From Ruminococcus albus 7 = DSM 20455 (GTDB taxonomy: Bacteria; Bacillota; Clostridia; Oscillospirales; Ruminococcaceae), in NCBI RefSeq assembly GCF_000179635.2, contig NC_014833.1, positions 1,080,001-1,112,000 of the forward strand: 32,000 nt of DNA, read 5' to 3'. Of the stretch, positions 3 through 28,866 are shown in pieces. The notes below the pieces were generated by a model. That model worked only from the letters and a program-made list of their open reading frames with translations, had not been told where the DNA came from and did no database searches. A program made the translations under genes and the position numbers. The stretch's first letter is position 1, and every line of letters begins with the position of its first letter.

Positions 3-3000
3 ATGAAGGAATCTGCAGGCAGAGATGGTATAGCGAGGGAGTACGAAACACCATCGGCTATGCATGGGGTCGTTGATTCTATCATAAAGAATATGCAGTC
101 TGTATCAGAAGAACTGGCTGCTATACCCGTAAATGCGGAAGCTACAGTTATCGGCAACAATGCTTACATCAGCGGTGACGGTTATCCCGACAATGCTGTG
201 CTGGTAGTTGACGGTGATAAGATAGCTCCCTATGTTGCTGAGAGCGGTAAGCTCCATATTGAGCTGAAGGGTGAGCAGATGGTCATATTCAACTTTGATG
301 AACTGACCGAAGCAAGGATAGACGAATTCAACATCAAGAGAGCTGAGGATAATGATTATCAGATTTCTACAACACCTTCAAACGAGAATACTCTCGAACA
401 CGGCAAGAACTACTGGCTGGATCAGAACGCTACCAGATATGTGGTATGGAACCTGAAGTCAGTCAAGGCTCTTGATATCAACAAGGCAACAGGTATATTC
501 CTTATACCCGATGATGATTCTGTTACACGTATCAAGGGTACAAGCTCGGGCTGGCTGGAATCTGCAGGCTATGTCAACAACCCTGACGGTGAGTGGCACT
601 TCCTGTACACAGACCTGCCGAGAAATACCACTGTGATCTCTGTAGATAAGAAAGATATCACAGGAGAGGCAGAGGTAAAGGGCGCTCAGCTGCGCATAAC
701 CACTGCTGAAGGTGAACCTGTATTCTCATGGGAATCCGACGGTAATACACACGAACTCAGACTTGCACCCGGCGATTATGTGCTGGAAGAAACAGGCAAC
801 GAGTTTGAAGCTGATGACGGTACCATATATAAGGTAATACCTTCAAAGGTAAGCTTTACTGTAAAGGCTGATGCAGATCAGGAATCCTACGGCTGCACAG
901 TTGAGAACGTAAAGGGCACTCAGCGTGCTGCTGACAGTGATTCGGACACAGGATATTATCTGTATAACGGCAGCAAGCAGCTGTTCACAGTATGTGATGC
1001 TGAGAGAGTATCTACCACAAAGGTAACTATCAACAAGCTTGATATAACAGGTGCTGAAGAACTGAACGGCGCAGTGCTGACCATAAAGGACAGCAAGGGC
1101 AGAACAGTAACAGGTACACCATGGACTTCTGCTAAGGGCAAGAAGCTTGAGGTCGAGCTTGCAGACGGTACATACACCCTGACCGAGACAGGCGACATGA
1201 TCACTGATTCGGAAGGAAACGAGTACGAAGTAATTGACAGCACACTCACCTTCAAGGTTGAGGACGGAAAGGTCACTACAGTAAAGAATGATACTGTAGA
1301 TGACGGTGTGAGCAGCTATTACGACGTTGACAGCTTTAACAATACTATCACTGTCAACGATGCTATGAAGCCTGCCGCAGCACCTGCTAAGGTCACTATA
1401 ACCAAGACCGATATCACAGGTGAAAAGGAGATCATAGGTGCTATACTGACCATTGTGGATCAGAACGGCAATACTGTTGAGGGAACACCCTGGACTACCC
1501 GCAGGAACAACAACAAGCTGGAGCTTGAACTTGCTGAGGGTACTTACACACTGACCGAAACACAGGGCAACAACCATATCGTTGACGAAGATGGTAATGA
1601 GTATGAAGTGATCGAGAGCTCACTGGTATTCAAGATCGAGGACGGCAAGGTGACCGAGGTCATCAACGATACAAGCAGAGACAACGGCGAAGGCTTCTTC
1701 AACGTTAACAGTGATACCAACGATATCATTATCAACGATGCTATGAAGTCCAACGACATAGTTACTGCAAAGGTCAAGATAGGCAAGACCGATATCACAG
1801 GTGAGAATGAGGTCGAGAACGCAAGGCTCAGCCTTTCCGTAAAGGGACTTTCCTATGATATGATCCAGACTATCATTGATAGTAATGAGGGTAATGGCCT
1901 GAAGAACTGGACTACAGCTCAGAACGGCGAGATCTTCACAATGAGCTGGGTATCCGGCAATAAGGCAGCGAACATCAAGGGTCTTGTTCCTGCAACTTAC
2001 ACACTTACCGAAACAGGTGACGCATTCGAGTATAACGGTGTTACCTATGAGGTGCTTGATTCTGAGGTAGTATTTGTTGTCAATGAGAGCGGAAAGATCG
2101 TTTACAGATCAGTACCTGCTCCATCTGATGAGAGAGTTCCTGCGAATTCCACAAGAAGCTATGCTAAGGCAAGCGGTACTACCATAACGATATGTGATGC
2201 TGCCAGAACAGATATCACAGTTTCCAAGAAGGACATAACCGCTTCTGAGGAAGTAAAGGGCGCACATCTTGTTATTGCGAACCGCGTCGGCGATGTCATC
2301 GAGGAATGGGATTCAAACGGCACAGATCACATTGTCAAGGGTCTGGCAAACGGCACTTACACACTGACCGAAACAGCTGTTGATGCTGAACAGGCAGGCG
2401 CTGAGTACAAGATCATTGATTCTGTAGTTACCTTTACTGTACTTAACGGCAAGATAACTGATGTATCAAGCAGTGTACTTGCTGACAAGGCAGAGAACGG
2501 TTCTGAGGACGGTTTTGTTCTTTGCGACAAGGACAGCAACACCATAACCGTATGCGATGCAAAGAAGACCACCAAGGTAATAATCAACAAGTTCGACATA
2601 ACAGGCAAGGAAGAACTGGACGGCGCAGTGCTGACCATCAAGGACAGCGAGAACAGAACCGTAACAGGCACTCCCTGGACATCACAGAAGGGCAAGAAGC
2701 TTGAAGTTGAACTTGAAAACGGCACATATACTCTGACCGAAACAGGTGACAAGATCACCGATGCAGAGGGCAACGAGTATGAAGTTATCGACAGCACTCT
2801 GACCTTCAAGGTAGAGGACGGCAAGGTAACAGTTGTTGAAAACAACACAAACAGCAACAATGGTGAAGGCTTCTATGCAGTAGATAGCGATACTAATACT
2901 ATCACAGTAAATGATGCAAAGAAGACCACCAAGGTAATCATCAACAAGTTCGACATAACAGGCAAGGAAGAACTGGACGGCGCAGTGCTGACTATAAAGG

Positions 3001-6000
3001 ACAGCGAGGGCAGGACAGTAACAGGTACTCCCTGGACATCACAGAAGGGCAAGAAGCTTGAAGTTGAACTTGAAAACGGCACATATACTCTGACCGAAAC
3101 AGGTGATAAGATCACCGATGCAGAGGGCAACGAGTATGAAGTTATCGACAGCACTCTGACCTTCAAGGTTGAGGACGGCAAGGTAACAGTTGTTGAAAAC
3201 AACACAAACAGCAACAATGGTGAAGGCTTCTATGCTGTAGATAGCGATACTAATACTATCACCGTCAACGATGCTAAGAAGACCACCAAGGTAATAATCA
3301 ACAAGTTTGACATAACAGGCAAGGAAGAACTGGACGGCGCAGTGCTGACCATAAAGGACAGCGAGGGCAGGACAGTAACAGGTACTCCCTGGACTTCCGC
3401 TAAGAATAAGAAGCTTGAAGTTGAACTTGAAAACGGCACATATACTCTGACCGAAACAGGTGACAAGATCACCGATGCAGAGGGCAACGAGTATGAAGTT
3501 ATCGACAGCACTCTGACCTTCAAGGTAGAGAATGGCAAGGTAACAGTTGTTGAGAACAATACAAATTCCAACAGCGGTGAGGGCTTCTATGCAGTAGATA
3601 GCGATACTAATACTATCACAGTAAATGATGCAAAGAAGACCACCAAGGTAATAATCAACAAGTTCGATATCACAGGCAAGGAAGAACTGGACGGCGCAGT
3701 GCTGACTATAAAGGACAGCAAGGGCAGAACAGTAACAGGTACTCCCTGGACTTCCGCTAAGAATAAGAAGCTTGAAGTTGAACTTGAAAACGGCACATAT
3801 ACTCTGACTGAAACAGGTGATAAGATCACCGATGCTGAGGGCAACGAGTATGAAGTTATCGACAGCACTCTGACCTTCAAGGTAGAGGACGGCAAGGTAA
3901 CAGTTGTTGAAAACAACACAAATTCCAACAATGGTGAAGGCTTCTATGCAGTAGATAGCGATACTAATACTATCACCGTCAACGATGCTAAGAAGACCAC
4001 CAAGGTAATAATCAACAAGTTCGATATAACAGGCAAGGAAGAACTGGACGGCGCAGTGCTGACTATCAAGGACAGCGAGGGCAGGACAGTAACAGGCACT
4101 CCCTGGACTTCTGCTAAGGGCAAGAAGCTTGAAGTTGAACTTGAAAACGGCACATATACTCTGACCGAAACAGGCGATAAGATCACCGATGCAGAGGGCA
4201 ACGAGTATGAAGTTATCGACAGCACTCTGACCTTCAAGGTTGAGAATGGCAAGGTAACAGTTGTTGAGAACAACACAAACAGCAACAATGGTGAAGGCTT
4301 CTATGCAGTAGATAGCGATACTAATACTATCACTGTAAATGATGCTAAGAAGACCACCAAGGTAATAATCAACAAGTTCGATATAACAGGCAAGGAAGAA
4401 CTGGACGGCGCAGTGCTGACCATAAAGGACAGCGAGGGCAGGACCGTAACAGGCACTCCATGGACTTCACAGAAGGGCAAGAAGCTTGAAGTTGAACTTG
4501 AAAACGGCACATATACTCTGACCGAAACAGGTGACAAGATCACCGATGCAGAGGGCAACGAGTATGAAGTTATCGACAGCACTCTGACCTTCAAGGTAGA
4601 GGACGGCAAGGTAACAGTTGTTGAAAACAACACAAACAGCAATAATGGTGAAGGCTTCTATGCAGTAGATAGCGATACTAATACTATCACAGTAAATGAT
4701 GCAAAGAAGACCACCAAGGTGATCATCAACAAGTTCGACATAACAGGCAAGGAAGAACTGGACGGCGCAGTGCTGACTATCAAGGACAGCGAGAACAGAA
4801 CCGTAACAGGCACTCCCTGGACTTCACAGAAGGGCAAGAAGCTTGAAGTTGAACTTGAAAACGGCACATATACTCTGACCGAAACAGGTGACAAGATCAC
4901 CGATGCAGAGGGCAACGAGTATGAAGTTATCGACAGCACTCTGACCTTCAAGGTTGAGAATGGCAAGGTAACAGTTGTTGAGAACAACACAAACAGCAAC
5001 AATGGCGAGGGCTTCTATGCAGTAGATAGCGATACTAATACTATCACCGTCAACGATGCTAAGAAGACCACCAAGGTAATAATCAACAAGTTCGATATCA
5101 CAGGCAAGGAAGAACTGGACGGCGCAGTGCTGACCATAAAGGACAGCGAGAACAGAACCGTAACAGGCACTCCCTGGACTTCTGCTAAGAATAAGAAGCT
5201 TGAAGTTGAACTTGAAAACGGCACATATACTCTGACCGAAACAGGTGACAAGATCACCGATGCAGAGGGCAACGAGTATGAAGTTATCGACAGCACTCTG
5301 ACCTTCAAGGTAGAGGACGGCAAGGTAACAGTTGTTGAAACAACACAAACAGCAATAATGGTGAAGGCTTCTATGCAGTAGATAGCGATACTAATACTAT
5401 CACAGTAAATGATGCAAAGAAGACCACCAAGGTGATCATCAACAAGTTCGACATAACAGGCAAGGAAGAACTGGACGGCGCAGTGCTGACCATAAAGGAC
5501 AGCGAGGGCAGGACAGTAACAGGCACTCCCTGGACATCACAGAAGGGCAAGAAGCTTGAAGTTGAACTTGAAAACGGCACATATACTCTGACCGAAACAG
5601 GTGATAAGATCACCGATGCAGAGGGCAACGAGTATGAAGTTATCGACAGCACTCTGACCTTCAAGGTAGAGGACGGCAAGGTAACAGTTGTTGAAAACAA
5701 CACAAACAGCAATAATGGTGAAGGCTTCTATGCAGTAGATAGCGATACTAATACTATCACCGTCAACGATGCAAAGAAGACCACCAAGGTAATAATCAAC
5801 AAGTTTGACATAACAGGCAAGGAAGAACTGGACGGCGCAGTGCTGACCATAAAGGACAGCGAGGGCAGGACAGTAACAGGTACTCCCTGGACTTCCGCTA
5901 AGAATAAGAAGCTTGAAGTTGAACTTGAAAACGGCACATATACTCTGACCGAAACAGGTGATAAGATCACCGATGCAGAGGGCAACGAGTATGAAGTTAT

Positions 6001-7882
6001 CGACAGCACTCTGACCTTCAAGGTAGAGGACGGCAAGGTAACAGTTGTTGAAAACAACACAAATTCCAACAGCGGTGAGGGCTTCTATGCAGTAGATAGC
6101 GATACTAATACTATCACCGTCAACGATGCAAAGAAGACCACCAAGGTAATAATCAACAAGTTTGACATAACAGGCAAGGAAGAATTGGACGGCGCAGTGC
6201 TGACCATAAAGGACAGCGAGGGCAGGACAGTAACAGGCACTCCCTGGACTTCACAGAAGGGCAAGAAGCTTGAAATTGAACTTGAAAACGGCACATATAC
6301 TCTGACCGAAACAGGTGATAAGATCACCGATGCAGAGGGCAACGAGTATGAAGTTATCGACAGCACTCTGACCTTCAAGGTAGAGGACGGCAAGGTAACA
6401 GTTGTTGAAAACAACACAAACAGCAACAATGGTGAGGGCTTCTATGCAGTAGATAGCGATACTAATACTATCACTGTAAATGATGCTAAGAAGTCTAATG
6501 TAACTATTACCAAAGTAGTTATCAAGAAGACTGATATCACAGGTACAGAGGAGATCACAGGTGCTGTACTGACAGTCAAGGATTCTGACGGCAATACTGT
6601 AACAGGTACACCTTGGACTTCCGGCAAGGACGGCAAGGAACTGGAACTCGAGCTGACAAACGGTACTTATACTCTTACTGAGGAAGCCGGCAACAATCAT
6701 ATAGTTGATGCGAACGGCAACGAGTACGAGGTGATTGAAAGCGTTCTGACTTTCAAGGTCGAAAACGGCATGGTAACTGAGGTCATCAATGATACTGAAA
6801 AGGGTAACGGCGAGGGCTTCTTTGAAGTTGATTCTGATAGCAATACTATCACGGTCAACGATGCTATGAAGTCCAATGAAACTACTACCATTGTAGTTAT
6901 CAAGAAGACCGATATCACAGGTACAGAGGAGATCACAGGTGCTGTACTGACAGTTAAGGATTCTGACGGCAATACCGTAACAGGTACACCTTGGACTTCC
7001 GGTAAGGACGGCAGTGAGCTGGAGCTCGAACTTGAAAACGGTACATATACTCTGACCGAAACAGGTGACACCATTACCGATGCAAACGGCAACGAGTATG
7101 AAGTTATCGACAGCACTCTCACCTTCAAGGTTGAGGACGGCAAGGTAACAGTTGTTGAAAACAACACTGATAAGGACAGCGGTGAAGGCTTCTTTGAGGT
7201 TGATTCCGATAGCAACACTATCACCGTCAACGATGCAAAGAAGACTGATAAGACTACTACCAGAGTTGTTATCAAGAAGACCGATATCACAGGTACAGAG
7301 GAGATCACAGGTGCTGTACTGACAGTTAAGGATTCTGACGGCAATACCGTAACAGGTACACCTTGGACTTCCGGTCAGGACGGCAGTGAGCTGGAGCTCG
7401 AACTGGAGAACGGCACATATACTCTGACCGAAACAGGTGATACCATTACCGATGCAAACGGCAACGAGTATGAAGTTATCGACAGTACTCTCACCTTCAT
7501 GGTAGAGGAAGGCAAGGTAACAGTTGTTGAAAACAGCACCGATAAGGACAGCGGCGAGGGCTTCTTCGAGGTCGATTCCGATAGCAACACTATCACTGTC
7601 AACGATGCAAAGAAGACTGATGACAGCTCGAAGCGTGATCGTGATGATGATTCTGCTACGGTAGAAGATAGTGACGATTCGGATTCCGCTTCTTCAAGCG
7701 GAGGTCCTGACAGCTCTAGCAGCAAGACTTCGACAACTTCGTCTTCAACATCTACCTCTACAAACACAAGCAACCCCAATACAGGTGCAAGAGTTCTGAT
7801 AAATACAGCAGAATTCGTAGCAGCGGTAGGTCTGGGCTTCCTGGCTATCAGACGCAAAAAGAACGACGAAGACGATCAGTGA
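3..7882 (+). pseudogene. Giant repetitive cell-wall-anchored surface protein or adhesin with about 19 SpaA/CnaB-like prealbumin-fold modules. The frame is broken by a 1-nt deletion, and the 5' end probably lies upstream of the window.
   Basis: ORFs 3..5381 and 5432..7882 lie in different + frames but encode the same 119-aa module (KKTTKVIINKFDITGKEELDGAVLTIKDS..GTYTLTETGD..EYEVIDSTLTFKVEDGKVTVVENN..TITVNDA). Other copies read GTTGTTGAAAACAACAC, whereas 5331-5346 reads GTTGTTGAAACAACAC (A4 to A3), which gives TAG at 5379-5381. The C-terminus has a D/S/T-rich stalk, an NPNTG sortase-type motif, a hydrophobic segment (VLINTAEFVAAVGLGFLAI) and an RRKK tail. No signal peptide is visible at the window start. 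Confidence 0.85.
2564..6489 (+). repeat. Tandem array of 11 near-identical 357-bp (119-aa) coding units inside the adhesin gene
   Basis: GAAGACCACCAAGGTAAT recurs at 2564, 2921, 3278, 3635, 3992, 4349, 4706 and 5063. It then recurs at 5419 (356-bp spacing caused by the deletion), 5776 and 6133. More diverged modules flank the array, about five upstream from ~640 and three downstream at ~6500, 6890 and 7260. Confidence 0.95.
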
Positions 7883-15677: not shown

Positions 15678-18600
15678 TCATTTCTTTGTAATGATCAGAG
15701 ATTGTCTGCCGAGTTTAGTGTAGGTATCCATAAAGAAATCATAGGACATGGTCTGCACCTTGCCGTAATAGCTGCTGCTGTCGAAGTTTTCAACATTACC
15801 GAGTATAAAGCAGTTATTGGCATCGTCATAACCTGTCAGCACTGCAGTGTGCTGTCTGCCGTACCAGGTGAAGTTATATGTGCCTGAGCCGGGGTTAGAA
15901 TACTTCTGACCTGCGGTGATCGTCTGGGTGCAAACAGCATAGGGCTCTACCTCAGAGTACCATACTATGGGGTTGTTGCCTTTGTCGATCTCAGTTTTAA
16001 GACCGTTGATATCAAGTCCGCCGCTGACGGCAGTATTTCCAAGGTCGAGTTTACCGGGATCGAATTTCAGCTTATTGACGTTGTTGCCTGTGTAATAATC
16101 GGTGTTCAGGGCGATGTTGTAGCTGTTGCGTACGCCGATATAATTAAGGTACTGGTGTGCAGATTGTGCTACAAGAGGAGCATAACAGCCGTAGCCCACG
16201 CTGCCTTCCATGCGGTAGGGTGAACCCCAGAAACAGTAGTTGGGGTCAACGTTGACAGCGCCGTTGTAGAATGCCTGTTCGGGCATATAGTAGTCGATCA
16301 GTGTGTTTTTGCTGACATTTATACCGAACTGGTAGTTAAGTACCGATGCAAGTGCGGTTTCCTCGCAGCCGAGAACAGCAGGATTTCCGCCGAGATAGCC
16401 GTCCTGGTTGATGACCGTCAGACCGCTGTTAGCGTAGTTTTTTACGCATGAAGTAGGAACATATCCCACCTGAGTGCCGTTTGAGTTAGGCAGGAAGATC
16501 TTAGTCCAGCCGTTAGCAGGGAGATCCGTCTGCATAACTGTGTTACCGACATAAAGATTGCCAAGCTTGGTACTGCCTGTGCTTGCGTTCGCATAAATTG
16601 GTGTAGCGGTCGTACACTTTACATAGCCGTCGGTCACAACTGTAACAGTGGTAGAATAAGAACCGTATGCCTTCTGACCGTTAACGGTCTTGTATGCGCG
16701 AACTCTTGTCTTGAAGCCTGTGCGCTGTGCAAGGTTTGTGAACTTGTAGCTTCTGGCGGTCTTTGCGTCATAAGCTTTCCACTTGCCGTCTATCTGTATA
16801 GAAGCTTCATAGCCCTCAGCGCCCGAAACTGCATTCCACATGAGGGTAGCAGTTGTGGTGTCGCTGTTGTAGAAATAGCTGTTGAATGTAGGTGCGGCGA
16901 GATCGGCTTTCTGCTCGGTCTGAGTATTGCTGTCTGCACTTACGCATGAAGTAGGAACATAACCGATCTGAGTGCCGTTGGAGTTAGGCAGGAAGATCTT
17001 AGTCCAGCCGTTAGTGGGGAGATCTGTCTGCATAACTGTGTTACCGACATAAAGATTTCCAAGCTTGGTAGAACCTGTGCTTGCGTTCGCATAAATTGGT
17101 GTAGCGGTCGTACACTTAACATAGCCGTCGGTAACAACGGTAACGGTGGTAGAATAAGAACCGTATGCCTTCTGACCGTTAACGGTCTTGTATGCGCGAA
17201 CCCTTGTCTTGAAGCCTGTGCGCTGTGCAAGGTTTGTGAACTTGTAGCTTTTGGCGGTCTTTGCGTCATAAGCTTTCCATTTGCCGTCTATCTGAATAGA
17301 AGCTTCATAGCCCTCAGCGCCCGAAACTGCGTTCCACATCAGGGTAGCAGTTGTGGTGTCACTGTTGTAGAAGTAGCTGTTGAATGTAGGTGCAGCGAGA
17401 TCGGCTTTCTGCTCGGTCTGTGTGTTTGTATCTGCGCTTACGCATGAAGTAGGAACATAACCGATCTGAGTGCCGTTGGAATTAGGCAGGAAGATCTTAG
17501 TCCAGCCGTTTGCAGGAAGATCCGTCTGCATAACTGTGTTGCCGACATACAGATTTCCAAGCTTGGTAGAACCTGTGCTTGCGTTCGCATAAATTGGTGT
17601 AGCGGTCGTACACTTAACATAGCCGTCGGTAACAACGGTAACAGTGGTAGAATAAGAACCGTATGCCTTCTGACCGTTAACGGTCTTGTAAGCGCGAACC
17701 CTTGTCTTGAAGCCTGTTCTCTGTGCAAGGTTTGTGAACTTGTAGCTTCTGGCGGTCTTTGCATCGTATGCTTTCCATTTACCGTCTATCTGAATAGAAG
17801 CCTCATAACCCTCAGCGCCCGAAACTGCGTTCCACATGAGGGTAGCTGTTGTGGTGTCACTGTTGTAGAAGTAGCTGTTGAATGTGGGGGCGGCGAGATC
17901 GGCTTTCTGCTCGGTCTGTGTGTTTGTATCTGCGCTTACGCATGAAGTAGGAACATAACCGATCTGAGTGCCGTTGGAATTAGGCAGGAAGATCTTAGTC
18001 CAGCCGTTTGCAGGGAGATCCGTCTGCATAACTGTGTTACCGACATAGAGATTTCCAAGCTTGGTAGAACCTGTGCTTGCGTTCGCATAAATTGGTGTAG
18101 CGGTCGTACACTTTACATAGCCGTCGGTAACAACGGTAACAGTGGTAGAATAAGAACCGTATGCCTTCTGACCATTAACGGTCTTGTAAGCGCGAACTCT
18201 TGTCTTGAAGCCTGTGCGCTGTGCAAGGTTAGTGAACTTGTAGCTTCTGGCGGTCTTTGCGTCATAAGCTATCCACTTACCGTCTATCTGAATAGAAGCT
18301 TCGTAGCCCTCAGCCCCCGAAACTGCGTTCCACATGAGGGTAGCTGTTGTGGTGTCACTGTTGTAGAAGTAGCTGTTGAATGTAGGTGCAGCGAGATCGG
18401 CTTTCTGCTCGGTCTGTGTATTGGAATCCGCACTTACGCATGAAGTAGGAACATAACCGATCTGAGTGCCGTTGGAGTTAGGCAGGAAGATCTTAGTCCA
18501 GCCGTTTGCAGGGAGATCCGTCTGCATAACTGTGTTACCGACATAAAGATTGCCAAGCTTTGTGCTGCCTGTGCTTGCGTTCGCATAAATTGGTGTAGCG

Positions 18601-19880
18601 GTCGTACACTTAACATAGCCGTCGGTAACAACGGTAACGGTGGTAGAATAAGAACCGTATGCCTTCTGACCGTTTACAGTTTTGTATGCGCGAACCCTTG
18701 TCTTGAAGCCTGTGCGCTGTGCAAGGTTTGTGAACTTGTAGCTTCTGGCGGTCTTTGCATCGTATGCTTTCCATTTGCCGTCTATCTGAATAGAAGCCTC
18801 ATAGCCCTCAGCGCCCGAAACTGCGTTCCACATGAGGGTAGCAGTTGTGGTGTCGCTGTTGTAGAAGTAGCTGTTGAATGTGGGGGCGGCGAGATTTGCA
18901 ACAGGGTCTTGCTTGGTAACTGTGCCGCCCGTCATTTCGGCATTGGCACCTTCTGCTTCGCCAACAGAGTTGAAAGGCACGATCAGCAGCTTTACAGTGC
19001 CGCTTTTGGGGAAGTCTGTGATAAGCTGATCGGTATCGGTATCTGCTATCAGCTTGGGCTTGCCGTCACTTGCTGTATTTGTCAGGTCGTAAACGTGATA
19101 GCCTGATGCGAAATCAGCCGCCAGCCAGTCTATCTTAGCTTTGCCGTTATTATCTGTAACGGTGATACTGCCGTTTATCGTTCCGGGTTTTATTTTCAGC
19201 AGATATCCTGTGGTATCGCCGTAGTCCTTTGTACGTATACCGTCCTCGGTCATAACGTATCTCAGGGGGGCTATCTCAACTGTCAGCTTACCGTCTTTGA
19301 ACATATCATAAGGAATATCAGCTTTAAGCGAATGTGTGTCAAAAGACTTTGTCTTATCACCGTTGGTGAACTTTACGCTGTATGTATCCATATCAGCTGC
19401 AGCGTTCCAGGAAACAGACTTTGTATCCTTATCTACATTGAACTCTATCAGCTTGACATTTTGCTGCATATCTCGGGGATTCTTCACAACGGGAAGATCG
19501 GTATATACTTCGATTCTGCGCTTGCCCTTTACCTGACCTGCCAGCAGACCGAGATCGGTGATATTAACTTTGCCGTCTGCATTTGCATCGGCAGCCTTCA
19601 AACCTTTCTCATTCAGTGATTTTGCAGTTTTTATGTGTGCTGCTGCTTTTACAACATCAGTGATGTCGATCTTGCCGTCACCGTTTATATCGCCTGCAGC
19701 ATAGGGCTTGTCACCTTCGGCGTATGGGGAAAAGTCCTGATCGCCTGTGGTATTGCTGTCAGCAGAAGCTGCTGATGCGGCATCACTGTTTTCACTGTTA
19801 TCGGCAAAAGCTCCCACTGATAACTGACCTGCTGCTATAGCCAGCGAAACTGCAGCAGCGAGGATCTTTTTACATCTCAT
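15678..19880 (-). CDS. Secreted dockerin-containing multidomain protein. The layout is signal peptide, dockerin, Fn3-like modules, five Fn3-SH3b units, then a YvpB/C39-like cysteine peptidase domain.
   Basis: - Signal peptide: MRCKKILAAAVSLAIAAGQLSVGAFA.
- Dockerin: duplicated Ca-binding repeats DINGDGKIDITDV and DANADGKVNITDL.
- Repeat unit: 166 aa with an Fn3 signature (TATLMWNAVSGAEGYE..YKFTNL..RVRAY) and an SH3b-like part (GNLYVGNTVMQTDLPANGWTKIFL).
- C-terminal domain: LGCEETALASVLNY and RQHTAVLTGYD resemble the Cys and His motifs of Peptidase_C39_2/YvpB. Confidence 0.85.
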   Translation of the reverse strand: MRCKKILAAAVSLAIAAGQLSVGAFADNSENSDAASAASADSNTTGDQDFSPYAEGDKPYAAGDINGDGKIDITDVVKAAAHIKTAKSLNEKGLKAADANADGKVNITDLGLLAGQVKGKRRIEVYTDLPVVKNPRDMQQNVKLIEFNVDKDTKSVSWNAAADMDTYSVKFTNGDKTKSFDTHSLKADIPYDMFKDGKLTVEIAPLRYVMTEDGIRTKDYGDTTGYLLKIKPGTINGSITVTDNNGKAKIDWLAADFASGYHVYDLTNTASDGKPKLIADTDTDQLITDFPKSGTVKLLIVPFNSVGEAEGANAEMTGGTVTKQDPVANLAAPTFNSYFYNSDTTTATLMWNAVSGAEGYEASIQIDGKWKAYDAKTARSYKFTNLAQRTGFKTRVRAYKTVNGQKAYGSYSTTVTVVTDGYVKCTTATPIYANASTGSTKLGNLYVGNTVMQTDLPANGWTKIFLPNSNGTQIGYVPTSCVSADSNTQTEQKADLAAPTFNSYFYNSDTTTATLMWNAVSGAEGYEASIQIDGKWIAYDAKTARSYKFTNLAQRTGFKTRVRAYKTVNGQKAYGSYSTTVTVVTDGYVKCTTATPIYANASTGSTKLGNLYVGNTVMQTDLPANGWTKIFLPNSNGTQIGYVPTSCVSADTNTQTEQKADLAAPTFNSYFYNSDTTTATLMWNAVSGAEGYEASIQIDGKWKAYDAKTARSYKFTNLAQRTGFKTRVRAYKTVNGQKAYGSYSTTVTVVTDGYVKCTTATPIYANASTGSTKLGNLYVGNTVMQTDLPANGWTKIFLPNSNGTQIGYVPTSCVSADTNTQTEQKADLAAPTFNSYFYNSDTTTATLMWNAVSGAEGYEASIQIDGKWKAYDAKTAKSYKFTNLAQRTGFKTRVRAYKTVNGQKAYGSYSTTVTVVTDGYVKCTTATPIYANASTGSTKLGNLYVGNTVMQTDLPTNGWTKIFLPNSNGTQIGYVPTSCVSADSNTQTEQKADLAAPTFNSYFYNSDTTTATLMWNAVSGAEGYEASIQIDGKWKAYDAKTARSYKFTNLAQRTGFKTRVRAYKTVNGQKAYGSYSTTVTVVTDGYVKCTTATPIYANASTGSTKLGNLYVGNTVMQTDLPANGWTKIFLPNSNGTQVGYVPTSCVKNYANSGLTVINQDGYLGGNPAVLGCEETALASVLNYQFGINVSKNTLIDYYMPEQAFYNGAVNVDPNYCFWGSPYRMEGSVGYGCYAPLVAQSAHQYLNYIGVRNSYNIALNTDYYTGNNVNKLKFDPGKLDLGNTAVSGGLDINGLKTEIDKGNNPIVWYSEVEPYAVCTQTITAGQKYSNPGSGTYNFTWYGRQHTAVLTGYDDANNCFILGNVENFDSSSYYGKVQTMSYDFFMDTYTKLGRQSLIITKK
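16443..18893 (-). repeat. Tandem array of about 4.9 copies of a 498-bp (166-aa) coding unit
   Basis: TACGCATGAAGTAGGAAC recurs at 16443, 16941, 17439, 17937 and 18435, an exact 498-bp period. The copies are near-identical, with mostly synonymous differences. Confidence 0.95.
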
Positions 19881-25801: not shown

Positions 25802-26048
25802 TAAGCAGAAGCTTATGCGGAGGATCCAGCAGAACAGCTTTGCACTGACGGAAGCTGTTCTTTACCTGGACAGTCATCCCACCTGCAAGATGGGTCTGGA
25901 ATATTTCAGAAAGCACAAGGCTGAGAAAGAGAAGCTTGAAAAGGAATATAACGAGAAGTACGGTCCCCTGACAGCGGAAAGTTCGGAGGGTACGAATAAG
26001 TGGGAATGGGTCATGAGGCCTTTTCCATGGGAGAGAGGTGAGAACTGA
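25785..26048 (+). CDS. cotJB: Spore coat protein CotJB
   Basis: RRIQQNSFALTEAVLYLDSHPTC..EYF...EKYGPLT is CotJB-like. The gene overlaps cotJA, and its RBS is GGAGAGGAGG. Confidence 0.85.
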   Translation: MPVLNDKQKLMRRIQQNSFALTEAVLYLDSHPTCKMGLEYFRKHKAEKEKLEKEYNEKYGPLTAESSEGTNKWEWVMRPFPWERGEN

Positions 26049-26644
26049 TGTGGATGTATGAGAAGAAATTGCAGTATCCCGTAAATATAAAAAATCCCGA
26101 TCCTGCGCTGGCTAAGGTCATAGTAAGTCAGCTGGGAGGTCCCGACGGCGAACTGGGTGCGTCGCTGAGGTATCTCAGTCAGAGATATTCTGCGCCCACA
26201 AGGGAAGTTCAGGCAATGCTGACAGATATCGGCACTGAAGAACTGGCGCACATGGAGATGATAAGTGCAATACTCTATCAGCTGACCCGCGGGCTTTCGA
26301 TGAAAGAGATAAAGGAGAGCGGGTTTGACACTTATTTTGTAGATCACACCACGGGCATATACCCTGTTGCGGCATCGGGTGTGCCGTTCTCGGCGGATTA
26401 TTTTCAGAGCAAGGGTGATCCGATAACCGACCTTAATGAAGATATGGCGGCTGAGCAGAAAGCGCGCACGACCTATGATAACATCTTGCGGCTGACCGAT
26501 GACCCTGATGTGCGCGACCCGATAAAGTATCTGAGAGAGAGGGAGATAGTACACTATCAGAGGTTTGGAGAATGTCTGAGGATAGTGACGGATATGCTGG
26601 ACAGCAAGAATCTTTATGCATTCAATCCGTCATTCGATAAATGA
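26048..26644 (+). CDS. cotJC: Spore coat protein CotJC (manganese catalase family)
   Basis: MYEKKLQYPVNIKNPDPALAKVIVSQLGGPDGELGASLRYLSQRY....TEELAHMEMI is present. The gene overlaps cotJB by TGATG. Confidence 0.9.
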   Translation: MWMYEKKLQYPVNIKNPDPALAKVIVSQLGGPDGELGASLRYLSQRYSAPTREVQAMLTDIGTEELAHMEMISAILYQLTRGLSMKEIKESGFDTYFVDHTTGIYPVAASGVPFSADYFQSKGDPITDLNEDMAAEQKARTTYDNILRLTDDPDVRDPIKYLREREIVHYQRFGECLRIVTDMLDSKNLYAFNPSFDK

Positions 26645-26688
26645 CAGGCAAAGCAGTACAGAGGATAAAGCAGTACAAAGGATAGAAT

Positions 26689-27362
26689 GCCAAGGAAGAG
26701 AGCTTTTGGTCAAGCTTTTCGCGAAAAGCTTGCGGAGAGCACGAGAGGCAGAGCCTCTCGGTCAAGGCGCAAAACCCAAATGCAAAGCAAGCATTAAGAA
26801 CACAGCAAACTCCCGACCAAACAGGCGCGGCAATATAGGAATACAGAGCGTGGACAAAACAAACGTCCACGCTCTTACTATGTGCGGAGATATTGCCGCG
26901 CCCGAAATCAACGGCGGTAGCTCGTTGATTTCTCGACCCGTAAGGGGCGATATGATACCGCAGTACTCGGGATAAAAGTTCTGCACTCTTGCAGGTCATA
27001 TAACAGATAGCTGGATTTTTATTTGTGGGCGGGGATTTGTAGGGCTGGTCGATGGTTTGATTTGGGAACATTGGTTTGTGAGTTTTCGTCCCTCTCTTCG
27101 TTCGGGTCGAGCCGTCAAAGACGCTTCGCTGTTTGACGGCGGGCGCGGGCAATATATTTACGCATACAGAAAGAGCGTGGACGTTTGATTGTCCACGCTC
27201 TGTATGCCTATATTGCCGCGCCTTATTGACAGGGTCGGGAGTTTGCTGTTCTATTTATAGCTCTTTGTTGCTACGTCGCCTTTGCACCTTGAGTTGAGGG
27301 CTCTGCCCTCAAACTCCCGCAAGCTTTTCGCGAAAAGCTTGACCAAAAGCTCACTTCTTGGC
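26689..27362. repeat. 674-bp non-coding compound imperfect palindrome made of two diverged inverted copies of a multi-hairpin element
   Basis: The outer arms match in inverted orientation (GCCAAGGAAGAGAGCTTTTGGTCAAGCTTTTCGCGAAAAGCTTGCGG at 26689 against its reverse complement ending at 27362). Mirror-matched blocks include:
- 26805-26818 with 27232-27246.
- 26823-26838 with 27207-27222.
- 26845-26875 with 27172-27201.
- 26890-26904 with 27140-27155.
- 26932-26940 with 27103-27111.
The symmetry centre is near 27025. Confidence 0.85.
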
Positions 27363-27419
27363 AGTTTACGCTCATGATTGAAGTCTTGAAACACAATAAA
27401 CAAATTCTATTAATAACTA

Positions 27420-27448
27420 TTGCATATTTTGTTGTGATGTGCTATAAT
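27420..27448 (+). promoter_or_regulatory. Sigma-A type promoter of the M48 peptidase operon
   Basis: TTGCAT, a 17-nt spacer, then TGC-TATAAT (an extended -10). Confidence 0.7.
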
Positions 27449-27522
27449 GATCTAAAGGGTTTACGGCAGATGCTGTGCCCTGTGTTAAGAAAAAAAGACT
27501 AAAGAAATATGAGGTGACAAAA

Positions 27523-28866
27523 ATGTCTGTTAATCCCGACCTTTTTATCCATGAATCTGATCGCACTGCGCTAAATGCCCTGAAAGCTATTCCCGGCTTT
27601 ACTCCGCTGCTGAGAGGTTTCATGAAGATATGGAATGAAAAGCAGTTCAAGCTGATGAATATGTCTACGCTTGTAAGGATAAGCGAAAAGCAGATGCCTG
27701 AGTACTATGAGATGCTAAAACCTATATGCAAGCGTCTGGGTATAAAGGAGCCCGAGCTTTTTATGACCACTGACCCTTATCCGAATGCTTATACTTCCGG
27801 GGAGAACGATCCTTTCATAGTGATGACAACGGGGCTGGTGGCTTCGCTGCCCCATGAACTTATACCATCGGTGCTGGCACATGAGTGCGGACATATAGCT
27901 TGTCATCATGTGCTGTATTCTACAATGGGCAGGATGATACTGGGCGGCTCGGCAGGATTGCTGGGACTTTCACCGCTGTTGACTGCCCCTTTGCAGATGG
28001 CTTTCTATTACTGGATGAGGTGCAGTGAGTTTTCTGCGGACAGGGCTGCTGCAGTCTGCGGCGGTTCGGGTGACAGTGTTGTAGAGGTGTGCATGAGGCT
28101 TGCAGGCTGTGAGAAGGATTCTCCCGTACAGGCAAATACCGAGGCTTTTCTGGAGCAGGCTAAGGAGTACCGAGATATGGTCAGCGGCTCGGCATTCAAC
28201 AAGACGCTGGAGTTCATGATGTTCTCCGCAAGGAGCCACCCCCTCAATGCGGTGCGTGCATACGAATGTAACGAGTGGTGCAAGACAAATGAATTCAAGA
28301 GTATAATCAAGTATCTTGATGAGGAAGAGGGAAGTGCCGTTCACGGTAATGTTCCCATGAACGAGAATGCAGGCAGCTATATAAAGAAAGATGCTTCAAA
28401 GACAGCTGACGAGCTGAGGACTGCAGGATTTACGAATGTTACGATAGTGCGTTCTGCCGAAGTTAAGGCAGGTGTGCCTGTGAACGGTGTAATATCTATT
28501 ACAGCCAACGGCAGGACAGACATAAAGAAAGGCGAATGGCTTCCTGCAGATACGGCTTGGGTGATAACTGCTTATGTACCGCTTTCGGCAGAGGAAGAAA
28601 AGGCAGCTCACCCGAATGAGGTTTGTGTGCCTTATTCCAGCGTAGGCTACAGCGGCAGGGATTACCGCACTGTGATAGATGAACTGCGTGCACTGGGATT
28701 CACGAATATATCAGTATGTGAACAGCCCGATATCAAGGTGAAATTCCTGATAAAGGAATACAGCATAGCGCATATTTCAATAGACCATACAGACAGGTTC
28801 GACAAGAATACATGGTTCAGACTGGATGCACCTGTATCCATAAGGTATCACGTTATGGCACAGTGA
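27523..28866 (+). CDS. M48-family zinc metallopeptidase with two C-terminal repeated modules
   Basis: The HEXXH motif is LAHECGHIACHH. The ATG at 27523 is preceded by GAGGTGA. The C-terminal modules begin ADELRTAGFTNVTIV and VIDELRALGFTNISV. Confidence 0.8.
   Translation: MSVNPDLFIHESDRTALNALKAIPGFTPLLRGFMKIWNEKQFKLMNMSTLVRISEKQMPEYYEMLKPICKRLGIKEPELFMTTDPYPNAYTSGENDPFIVMTTGLVASLPHELIPSVLAHECGHIACHHVLYSTMGRMILGGSAGLLGLSPLLTAPLQMAFYYWMRCSEFSADRAAAVCGGSGDSVVEVCMRLAGCEKDSPVQANTEAFLEQAKEYRDMVSGSAFNKTLEFMMFSARSHPLNAVRAYECNEWCKTNEFKSIIKYLDEEEGSAVHGNVPMNENAGSYIKKDASKTADELRTAGFTNVTIVRSAEVKAGVPVNGVISITANGRTDIKKGEWLPADTAWVITAYVPLSAEEEKAAHPNEVCVPYSSVGYSGRDYRTVIDELRALGFTNISVCEQPDIKVKFLIKEYSIAHISIDHTDRFDKNTWFRLDAPVSIRYHVMAQ

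Follow-up and report, generated by a model that had tools for sequence, protein, structure and literature searches.

The 32,000-nucleotide window analysed here (contig NC_014833.1 of Ruminococcus albus 7, positions 1,080,001 to 1,112,000) carries, between cotJC and an M48 peptidase gene, an imperfect palindrome centred near position 27026 of the window. It is a member of a repeat family that is dispersed, old, mosaic and intergenic and that tends to lie shortly past the ends of co-oriented genes. A preliminary description, made from the letters alone, had proposed a 674-bp non-coding palindrome at this site, and the palindrome was verified by inspection of the sequence and by a repeat search of the window. 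Its outermost arms span 41 nt each (26695-26735 and 27317-27357) and match at 98% complementarity, more arm pairs follow toward the centre, and the left arm aligns with the reverse complement of the right over about 270 nt at 80% column identity. The palindrome is composed of two convergent ~300-nt units, ~80% identical to each other, on either side of a ~100-nt asymmetric centre (Table 1).

The window lineage carries this doublet, and R. albus KH2T6 lacks it at the orthologous locus (L066; loci are cited by their L numbers). The true extent of the element, 26648-27380, is set by the homology breakpoints between the two. It begins 3 nt past the TGA stop of cotJC, and its right arm faces the M48 promoter region. 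The likely M48 promoter lies outside the element and is kept in KH2T6; a consensus promoter scan did not flag its TTGCAT-17 nt-TATAAT. As the preliminary description suspected, the open reading frames (ORFs) across the block look spurious: those of 119, 176 and 50 aa have no Pfam match, and gene callers leave the block unannotated in 9/10 assemblies. RNA folding of the palindrome gives z-scores of -24 and -39 on the two strands, which are uninformative because such values are expected of any palindrome.

From the outside inward, an arm of the family consists of a leader (three types), H1, H2, an optional hairpin, an A-rich spacer, a nested H3, H4, H5 and a tail. The tails differ between the two arms (types A and B), and the centre is non-palindromic and so gives the doublet its polarity. 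A profile search with nhmmer places the two units of the window at 26679-26970 (+) and 27375-27064 (-), close to the covariance-model boundaries. Within H1, the 20-mer AAGCTTTTCGCGAAAAGCTT stands exactly where it had been reported, at 26712-26731 and 27321-27340, and occurs in none of 100 shuffles. The H2 stems are indeed compensated between the arms, but three stem positions differ rather than two, all of them compensated. The nested H3 is present and mirrored, with a 1-nt bulge in the right copy; H4 occupies mirrored positions as described; and a fifth hairpin, H5, which had been missed, is found in both arms. Across the family, H4 may have an optional insert and commonly has a GCGAAGC apex (or GCGATAGC); H5 loops include GTAA and GCAA. 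The heptamer GCGAAGC is an unusually stable DNA mini-hairpin, which we use as a lead only. The centre of H1, CTTTTC-GC-GAAAAG, resembles the CodY-box palindrome AATTTTCWGAAAATT, with a two-base rather than a one-base centre, and this too is no more than a lead.

The left end does carry a 17-bp tandem duplication, although its two copies lie one base away from the coordinates first given (at 26650-26666 and 26667-26683). The duplication belongs to the element instead of merely abutting it: strains L001 and L006 have a mirror image of it at the right end, and it is absent in L010. The single 17-bp copy in the latter (L010:1483-1500) makes the left-end duplication polymorphic. The same alpha type of leader is found in copies L036, L042 and L050.

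Table 1. Features of the cotJC-M48 interval, in window coordinates
Feature	Position	Strand	Basis or remark
cotJC (Mn-catalase family), last gene of cotJA-JB-JC	26048-26644	+	TGA stop at 26642-26644
Whole composite element (convergent doublet and leaders)	26648-27380		L066 homology stops at 26647 and resumes at 27381
Left leader, alpha type, with 17-bp tandem duplication AAAGCAGTACAGAGGAT then AAAGCAGTACAAAGGAT	26650-26683	+	repeat search
Left repeat unit, B-type arm	26681-26968	+	274 bits over the whole of covariance model R1, E 1e-80
H1 left, perfect 22-bp palindrome CAAGCTTTTCGCGAAAAGCTTG	26711-26732		most conserved part of the family
H2 left, allele A, CGAGAGGC-AGA-GCCTCTCG	26742-26760	+	sequence and family alignment
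H3 left, nested, 13-bp outer and 11-bp inner stem	26824-26902	+	inverted-repeat pairs
H4 left, GAAATCAACG ... CGTTGATTTC	26904-26932	+	inverted-repeat pair
H5 left, TCGACCC-GTAA-GGGGCGA	26933-26950	+	sequence and family alignments
Asymmetric centre, tails of both units	26969-27067		comparison of centres
Right repeat unit, A-type arm	27068-27370	-	covariance model R1, 268 bits, E 6e-79
H5 right, TCGACCC-GAACGAAGAGA-GGGACGA (minus strand)	27086-27110	-	sequence and alignment
H4 right, GCCGTCAAA / TTTGACGGC allele; minus-strand apex GCGAAGC	27111-27140	-	sequence and alignment
H3 right, nested, 1-nt bulge in outer stem (GGGC vs GCC)	27142-27222	-	repeat families and inverted-repeat pairs
H2 right, allele B, TTGAGGGC-TCT-GCCCTCAA	27294-27312	-	sequence and alignment
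H1 right, 22-bp perfect palindrome identical to the left one	27320-27341		repeat search
Likely M48 promoter, TTGCAT-17 nt-TATAAT	27420-27448	+	read from the sequence

An exact-match scan for the 20-mer in one genome per species (185,579 species) returned 55 loci, 47 of which fall in three genomes: R. albus KH2T6 (20), R. albus AR67 (15) and the metagenome-assembled genome Ruminococcus sp. RUI259 (12). The other eight are single, unrelated matches. The flanks of the 47 loci share window sequence far past the 20-mer, and BLAST together with an nhmmer profile gives a unit length of about 300-330 nt. A covariance model, R1, built from 27 units, recognises 88 copies in the fetched DNA, and profile and covariance-model searches taken together recover 88-132 units, each genome contributing at least 13-23 near-full ones from the DNA fetched. 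A degenerate H1 pattern adds 43 further metagenome loci, most of them from one sample. The preliminary description had listed a repeat family among its options, and this is what is found: the unit is dispersed in R. albus-group genomes, and the element matches no known insertion sequence (IS) or miniature transposable element with inverted repeats (MITE).

No match to the element was obtained by BLAST of phage and plasmid sequences (distant mode) or by a pattern scan of viral contigs. Neither the 32-kb window nor any of 18 other loci (about 30 copies) contains a match to Rfam 15 at the gathering score, and at E up to 10 on 26300-27800 only chance-level miRNA-type matches (E about 2-9) turn up. 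A literature search for R. albus or Ruminococcus repeats or MITEs found no such repeat described. Beside units at five loci (L024:7585-7700, also L020, L017, L023 and L056), we also observe a second short repeat in tandem, about 20-25 nt long (GGTATACG..CGTAT..TTTGGTAT), which is similar to an allele of the inner stem-loop of H3 (GTGTACCAAAGTATAC).

The 132 units, spread over 83 loci, include 33 adjacent pairs, and every one of these is convergent (33/33, with none divergent and none tandem), the gaps clustering near 50 and 95 nt. The full window doublet, centre included, aligns in reverse orientation to the doublets at L050, L027, L035, L038 and L055 with 70-76% identity. Doublet centres are conserved between AR67 and KH2T6, and that of the window is partly homologous to theirs, again in reverse orientation. 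Half copies and internally deleted copies are common, including mini-doublets that join two H1 regions (e.g., L019), and many single units keep remnants of the centre. Because the pairs are always convergent, their centres are conserved, doublets align over their full length and single units retain centre remnants, the 674-bp palindrome is one complete foldback-type element of ~0.7 kb with a polarity of its own, and the half copies are derivatives of it.

The copies are old. The best identity between copies of one genome is 76-86% (median 47-62%), and where KH2T6 and AR67 have elements at the same orthologous position, these share about 85% identity, with flanks at 89-94%. The family therefore predates these species and shows no sign of a recent burst.

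The hairpins are preserved by compensatory change at the level of the family. We aligned the 88 copies with the guidance of a hand-drawn structure and realigned them with the covariance model; RNAalifold on MAFFT alignments recovered the structure only in part, because indels shift the stems. Standard pairs fill 90.6% of the pair cells, compared with 80.4% when partners are shuffled (0/500 shuffles reach 90.6%) and 35-44% in slid registers; an alignment fitted to a structure inflates pairing somewhat, but the slid controls show an effect that far exceeds this bias. Two-sided changes occur at 40/55 pairs, in 445 cells. H1 is 98.2% paired and has coordinated T-A to C-G changes in 27 copies, while H2 has at least five alleles, all paired. 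In H3, two-sided changes are seen at 12/12 outer and 7/10 inner pairs. H4 is 97.6% paired, with covariation at 7/9 pairs and three fully paired alleles (GAAATCAACG, GTCATCGGA and GCCGTCAAA), and H5, in which 75% of cells are paired, has two-sided changes at 7/7 pairs. The suggestion in the preliminary description that structure is kept while sequence changes thus holds across the 88 copies.

Within the cotJC-M48 locus itself, the differences between the arms have another origin. In ten assemblies with identical CotJC, the flanks are nearly identical and the palindrome is a hypervariable mosaic. The left and right H2 alleles are AA, AB or BB depending on the strain, the left H1 has an alternative allele, and the right H3 comes in three versions among the 10 strains. 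Two strains (L005:7330-7430 and L009) have an extra right-end module of ~95 bp, placed at ~27357 of the window, with a hairpin of its own (TTCGCGGC...GCCGCGAA) and a diverged H1-like segment; it is the "gamma" leader module of other loci. The greater "intergenic" length of L003 (~7520-7630), a metagenome scaffold with an N run and then a duplicated M48 leader, is due to a scaffolding artefact. Since the hairpin alleles reassort among strains, the arm-to-arm differences are alternative family alleles and not the product of stepwise co-evolution at this locus. The alleles are exchanged by recombination or gene conversion between the arms, and probably between copies.

Selection on RNA of one strand should leave more G-U pairs than A-C mismatches on that strand. 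In the sense-scored alignment, the counts are 123 and 86, which we read as no strand asymmetry, and unbiased folds of 73 distinct units give the antisense strand more G-U pairs and a mean energy of -112.5 kcal/mol, versus -109.3 kcal/mol for sense. Strict Watson-Crick pairs make up 88% of cells. The hairpins are equally good on both strands and, because G-U and A-C counts show no strand bias, RNA and DNA hairpins are indistinguishable here. Such strand-symmetric pairing fits DNA hairpins or cruciforms, maintenance of the palindrome by template switching, or a wobble-poor RNA. The loops of GNRA type, found on the outer-to-inner strand, hint weakly at RNA, and the GCGAAGC apex, given its stability as a mini-hairpin, hints weakly at DNA.

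Units tend to follow genes that point in the same direction, with the outer end a few to tens of nucleotides past the stop codon. In 24/59 units, a co-oriented long ORF has its stop 28-50 nt before H1, which is 0-20 nt before a conserved TGCCAAGG. Of 48 single units, 29 have a sense ORF whose end lies no more than 100 nt from the outer end of the unit, and 14 have a convergent ORF that terminates equally near to the inner end. Doublets lie between convergent genes in 17/45 classified loci.

The orthologous sites show what occupies these positions when the element is absent. In KH2T6, the cotJC-M48 interval holds a hairpin with a T-run terminator, a CPBP/Rce1-like gene and a second terminator, and no element. 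This extra gene (within L066:1946-3001, orthologous to window 26645-27522) encodes a 222-aa CPBP/Rce1-like intramembrane protease (PF02517) and has its own promoter-like sequence and terminator; the window lineage is without it. The M48 proteins of the two genomes are 89% identical. A scan of the plus strand of the window at 26645-27420 found no G+C-rich hairpin with a U-run. At a second site, RUI259 (L020) has a canonical bidirectional terminator (AAAAACCTCTG...CAGAGGATTTTTT) where KH2T6 (L043) holds a doublet. When 83 loci were compared all against all, no more than two filled-versus-empty candidates emerged, both of them spacer replacements, and in a third such comparison the whole spacer has been replaced too. 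A 63%-identical M48 homologue sits in a different gene neighbourhood and is uninformative. Doublets with a beta-type leader (e.g., L013 and L052) have a run of four to five T (T4-5) past the base of the stem, a likeness to an intrinsic terminator in possible function and not in membership.

With moderate confidence, we regard the element as part of a non-coding interspersed foldback repeat family of the R. albus group, for which we infer both past spread and a role in cis at the 3' ends of genes. The family would have spread as a selfish or recombinogenic DNA element, probably by means of its hairpins. With its near-invariance and 8-6-8 layout, H1 is the obvious candidate site for recognition by a protein. 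The element would be co-transcribed with the upstream gene, here the cotJ operon, and the transcribed RNA would fold first into local hairpins and then into a ~300-bp arm-to-arm duplex. This structure could act in cis as a 3'-end barrier, a terminator substitute or an insulator before the M48 promoter, and it might stop 3' exonucleases, hinder transcription from running on into M48 or draw in RNases that are specific for double strands. Comparable roles are discussed for REP/BIME, BOX and SPRITE (PMC3184786, PMC3049150). The 3'-end role draws limited support from the plus strand of the window, which has no hairpin with a T-run, and from the element-free orthologue, which has one.

Several observations weigh against this reading. 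Neither a target-site duplication nor a clean empty site was found, the filled-versus-empty comparisons being whole-spacer replacements. In the window and in L001 and L043, the element is not bordered by direct repeats, and its flanks instead extend the palindrome (TAAA/TTTA, A-run/T-run). The window doublet is followed by only TTT. In a crude scan, a hairpin with a T-run is similarly frequent at gene ends with the element (19/90) and without it (127/459). The orientation bias is about 2:1 and not absolute, and orthologous copies inflate the counts; the terminator role, seen at two loci, is anecdotal. As for spread, there are no near-identical copies within a genome and so no sign of recent mobility. 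Comparison of ten large ORFs of the window with Pfam found no parent IS, transposase or recombinase, and no Y1 transposase was recognised by a crude motif search that covered about 2,100 ORFs from the roughly 700 kb of fetched loci. At two loci in which genes lie between distant convergent arms, ORF translations include nothing transposase-like: L073 has a sigma-factor-like and anti-sigma-like pair, and L100 has housekeeping genes.

It is also conceivable, although in our judgement unlikely, that the ~300-nt arm is a selected multi-helix module and not a decaying selfish repeat, serving either as a 3'-untranslated-region (3'-UTR) structure that replaces intrinsic terminators or mRNA-end protectors at dozens of genes of one R. 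albus lineage, or as the substrate of an undescribed protein that binds H1. In either case, compensatory evolution would have kept the old and diverged copies able to fold.

The near-invariance of H1 while the rest of the unit diverges also fits a DNA element whose single-stranded hairpins are recognised by an HUH/Y1 transposase encoded elsewhere, of the REP/RAYT or IS200/IS605 type, with the hairpins conserved for the needs of mobilisation. The absence of target-site duplications agrees with this idea, as do stems that are Watson-Crick on both strands, BIME-like module mosaics with fixed relative orientation and, as a lead only, the frequent GCGAAGC apex of H4. However, the Y1 motif search of the fetched loci, crude as it was, was negative, H1 has no GTAG-type REP guide motif, the unit is ten times the length of a REP, and there are no recent copies; nor does mobility alone predict a bias toward the 3' ends of genes in the sense orientation. 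We consider this explanation improbable; HUH-type mobilisation is compatible with a repeat family acting at gene ends and is a possible answer to how the family spread.

A third alternative takes each ~300-nt arm as a functional RNA, either a multi-copy small RNA or a 3'-UTR riboregulator, so that the palindrome would be two convergent RNA genes. All six helices covary strongly, several copies have GTAA or GCAA (GNRA-type) H5 loops on the outer-to-inner strand, units are biased toward the sense orientation behind stop codons, and copies that are old (at most 86% identical) still fold. The symmetry of G-U and A-C, with antisense folding slightly better, is at odds with such an RNA, and no conserved promoter or terminator bounds the unit. 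The mosaicism, truncations, internal deletions and optional hairpins are typical of repeats, and the family is restricted to a few closely related species and has no Rfam match. On balance, we think this quite unlikely.

The two identical 22-bp palindromes, set in 41-nt inverted repeats, bracket about 590 bp upstream of the M48 promoter, an arrangement that could belong to an inverton, an invertible or excisable segment that switches M48 or an antisense to cotJ, with H1 as a tyrosine-recombinase-type core of 8-6-8 layout (CAAGCTTT-TCGCGA-AAAGCTTG). The existence of internally deleted mini-doublets that join two H1 regions also speaks for it. The interior nevertheless has the same orientation in 10/10 assemblies (assemblies would hide minority orientations), the large ORFs of the 32-kb window include no recombinase domain, and the block contains only one weak promoter-like match (9/12). 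The structure also recurs between convergent genes, where switching would be without a target, and many copies are single units with one H1, all of which makes an inverton very improbable. Finally, the presence of the locus in 10 independent assemblies and the dozens of homologous copies refute the idea that the palindrome arose by chance, by an inverted duplication confined to this locus or as an artefact of assembly.

Elsewhere in the window, two adjoining and very large ORFs, at 3-5381 (+) and 5432-7882 (+), encode 1792 aa (cut off by the start of the window) and 816 aa, with 12 and 6 SpaA/prealbumin-like repeat stretches, respectively, and look like cell-surface adhesin or pilin-like proteins. 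A 1400-aa ORF at 15678-19880 (-) brings together a type I dockerin, fibronectin type III domains and five SH3 domains of the bacterial type, as in a cellulosome-associated-type protein, and is consistent with an origin in the R. albus group.

These results explain the palindrome as a family and not as a one-off, and, to judge from Rfam, the phage and plasmid collections and the literature that could be searched, no interspersed structured repeat had been described before in the R. albus group of rumen cellulose degraders. The covariance model and the boundaries could help annotation pipelines to avoid spurious ORFs. If the cis role at 3' ends is true, the family would show, in a natural setting, intrinsic terminators being replaced by mobile arrays of hairpins, and it would serve as a marker of strain-level recombination too, since its alleles reassort among strains with identical flanking genes. 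For a specialist, the surprise would come with the demonstration of a 3'-end function or of a new enzyme that binds H1.

Among the closest known systems are the pneumococcal repeats. The parts of PMC3049150 (Croucher et al. 2011) and PMC3184786 that treat BOX, RUP and SPRITE describe non-coding intergenic elements with dozens to hundreds of copies in one species group, slow or no transposition and no evident autonomous partner. According to the same accounts, these elements have extensive predicted secondary structure and are considered to influence genes transcribed together with them; BOX is built of modules (boxA, boxB in variable number, boxC), and SPRITE is terminator-like. The family described here, compared with them by description only, shares the traits of an intergenic, modular and structured repeat. 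It differs in size, with a unit of about 300 nt and a doublet of about 700 nt against about 100-200 nt, in its Oscillospirales rumen host, and in its always convergent pairs, conserved asymmetric centre and nearly invariant 22-bp palindrome.

The REP/BIME elements of Enterobacteria and Pseudomonas often lie between convergent genes or after gene ends, form inverted pairs and mosaics and make no target duplications; according to PMC3184786, they can stabilise upstream mRNA and bind host proteins. The present family resembles REP/BIME and REPIN sequences in being extragenic, in its position at gene ends or between convergent genes and in its inverted clusters with other motifs. REPs, however, are single imperfect hairpins of 20-40 nt with a conserved 5' tetranucleotide and a link to RAYT, whereas the unit here is about 300 nt long with 5-6 hairpins, its H1 is a perfect 22-bp palindrome without a GTAG-like motif, and its copy number is lower. 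The crude motif search of about 700 kb found no RAYT-like gene near the copies.

MITE and foldback elements, of which the relevant passages of PMC3184786 and PMC10969869 list Correia/NEMIS and ERIC as examples, are likewise small, non-coding and dispersed, with inverted-repeat ends, long hairpins when transcribed and a presence that varies between related genomes. The element is about 730 bp long, non-coding and present in many copies, and its arms stand as terminal inverted repeats, though a single unit does not itself end in such repeats. The inverted repeats here, in contrast, take up 2 x 300 of about 730 bp and are chains of local hairpins, and the copies are old, at most 86% identical. 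The MITE-like option of the preliminary description stands as regards a dispersed foldback form, but a classical cut-and-paste MITE is disfavoured by the absence of target-site duplications, and no parent IS was found in the window or beside the arms in the fetched loci. Nor does the element belong to the intrinsic terminators, there being no G+C-rich hairpin with a U-run on the plus strand at 26645-27420.

Nothing observed favours the other early option, a large ornate RNA. The large structured RNAs of Firmicutes and the rumen (ROOL, GOLLD, raiA, OLE and HEARO) are comparable in being non-coding, with multiple covarying helices, but they usually occur once or a few times per genome and not as palindromic doublets, and neither an Rfam match nor an asymmetry of G-U over A-C places the present element among them. 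We therefore assign the family to the interspersed structured repeats, as a new member of the BOX-, BIME- or foldback-MITE-like kind that probably acts in cis at gene 3' ends. Within that kind, it is unusual in its size, in the obligatory convergent pairing around an asymmetric centre, in having five or six covarying hairpins in a chain and in how long it has persisted.

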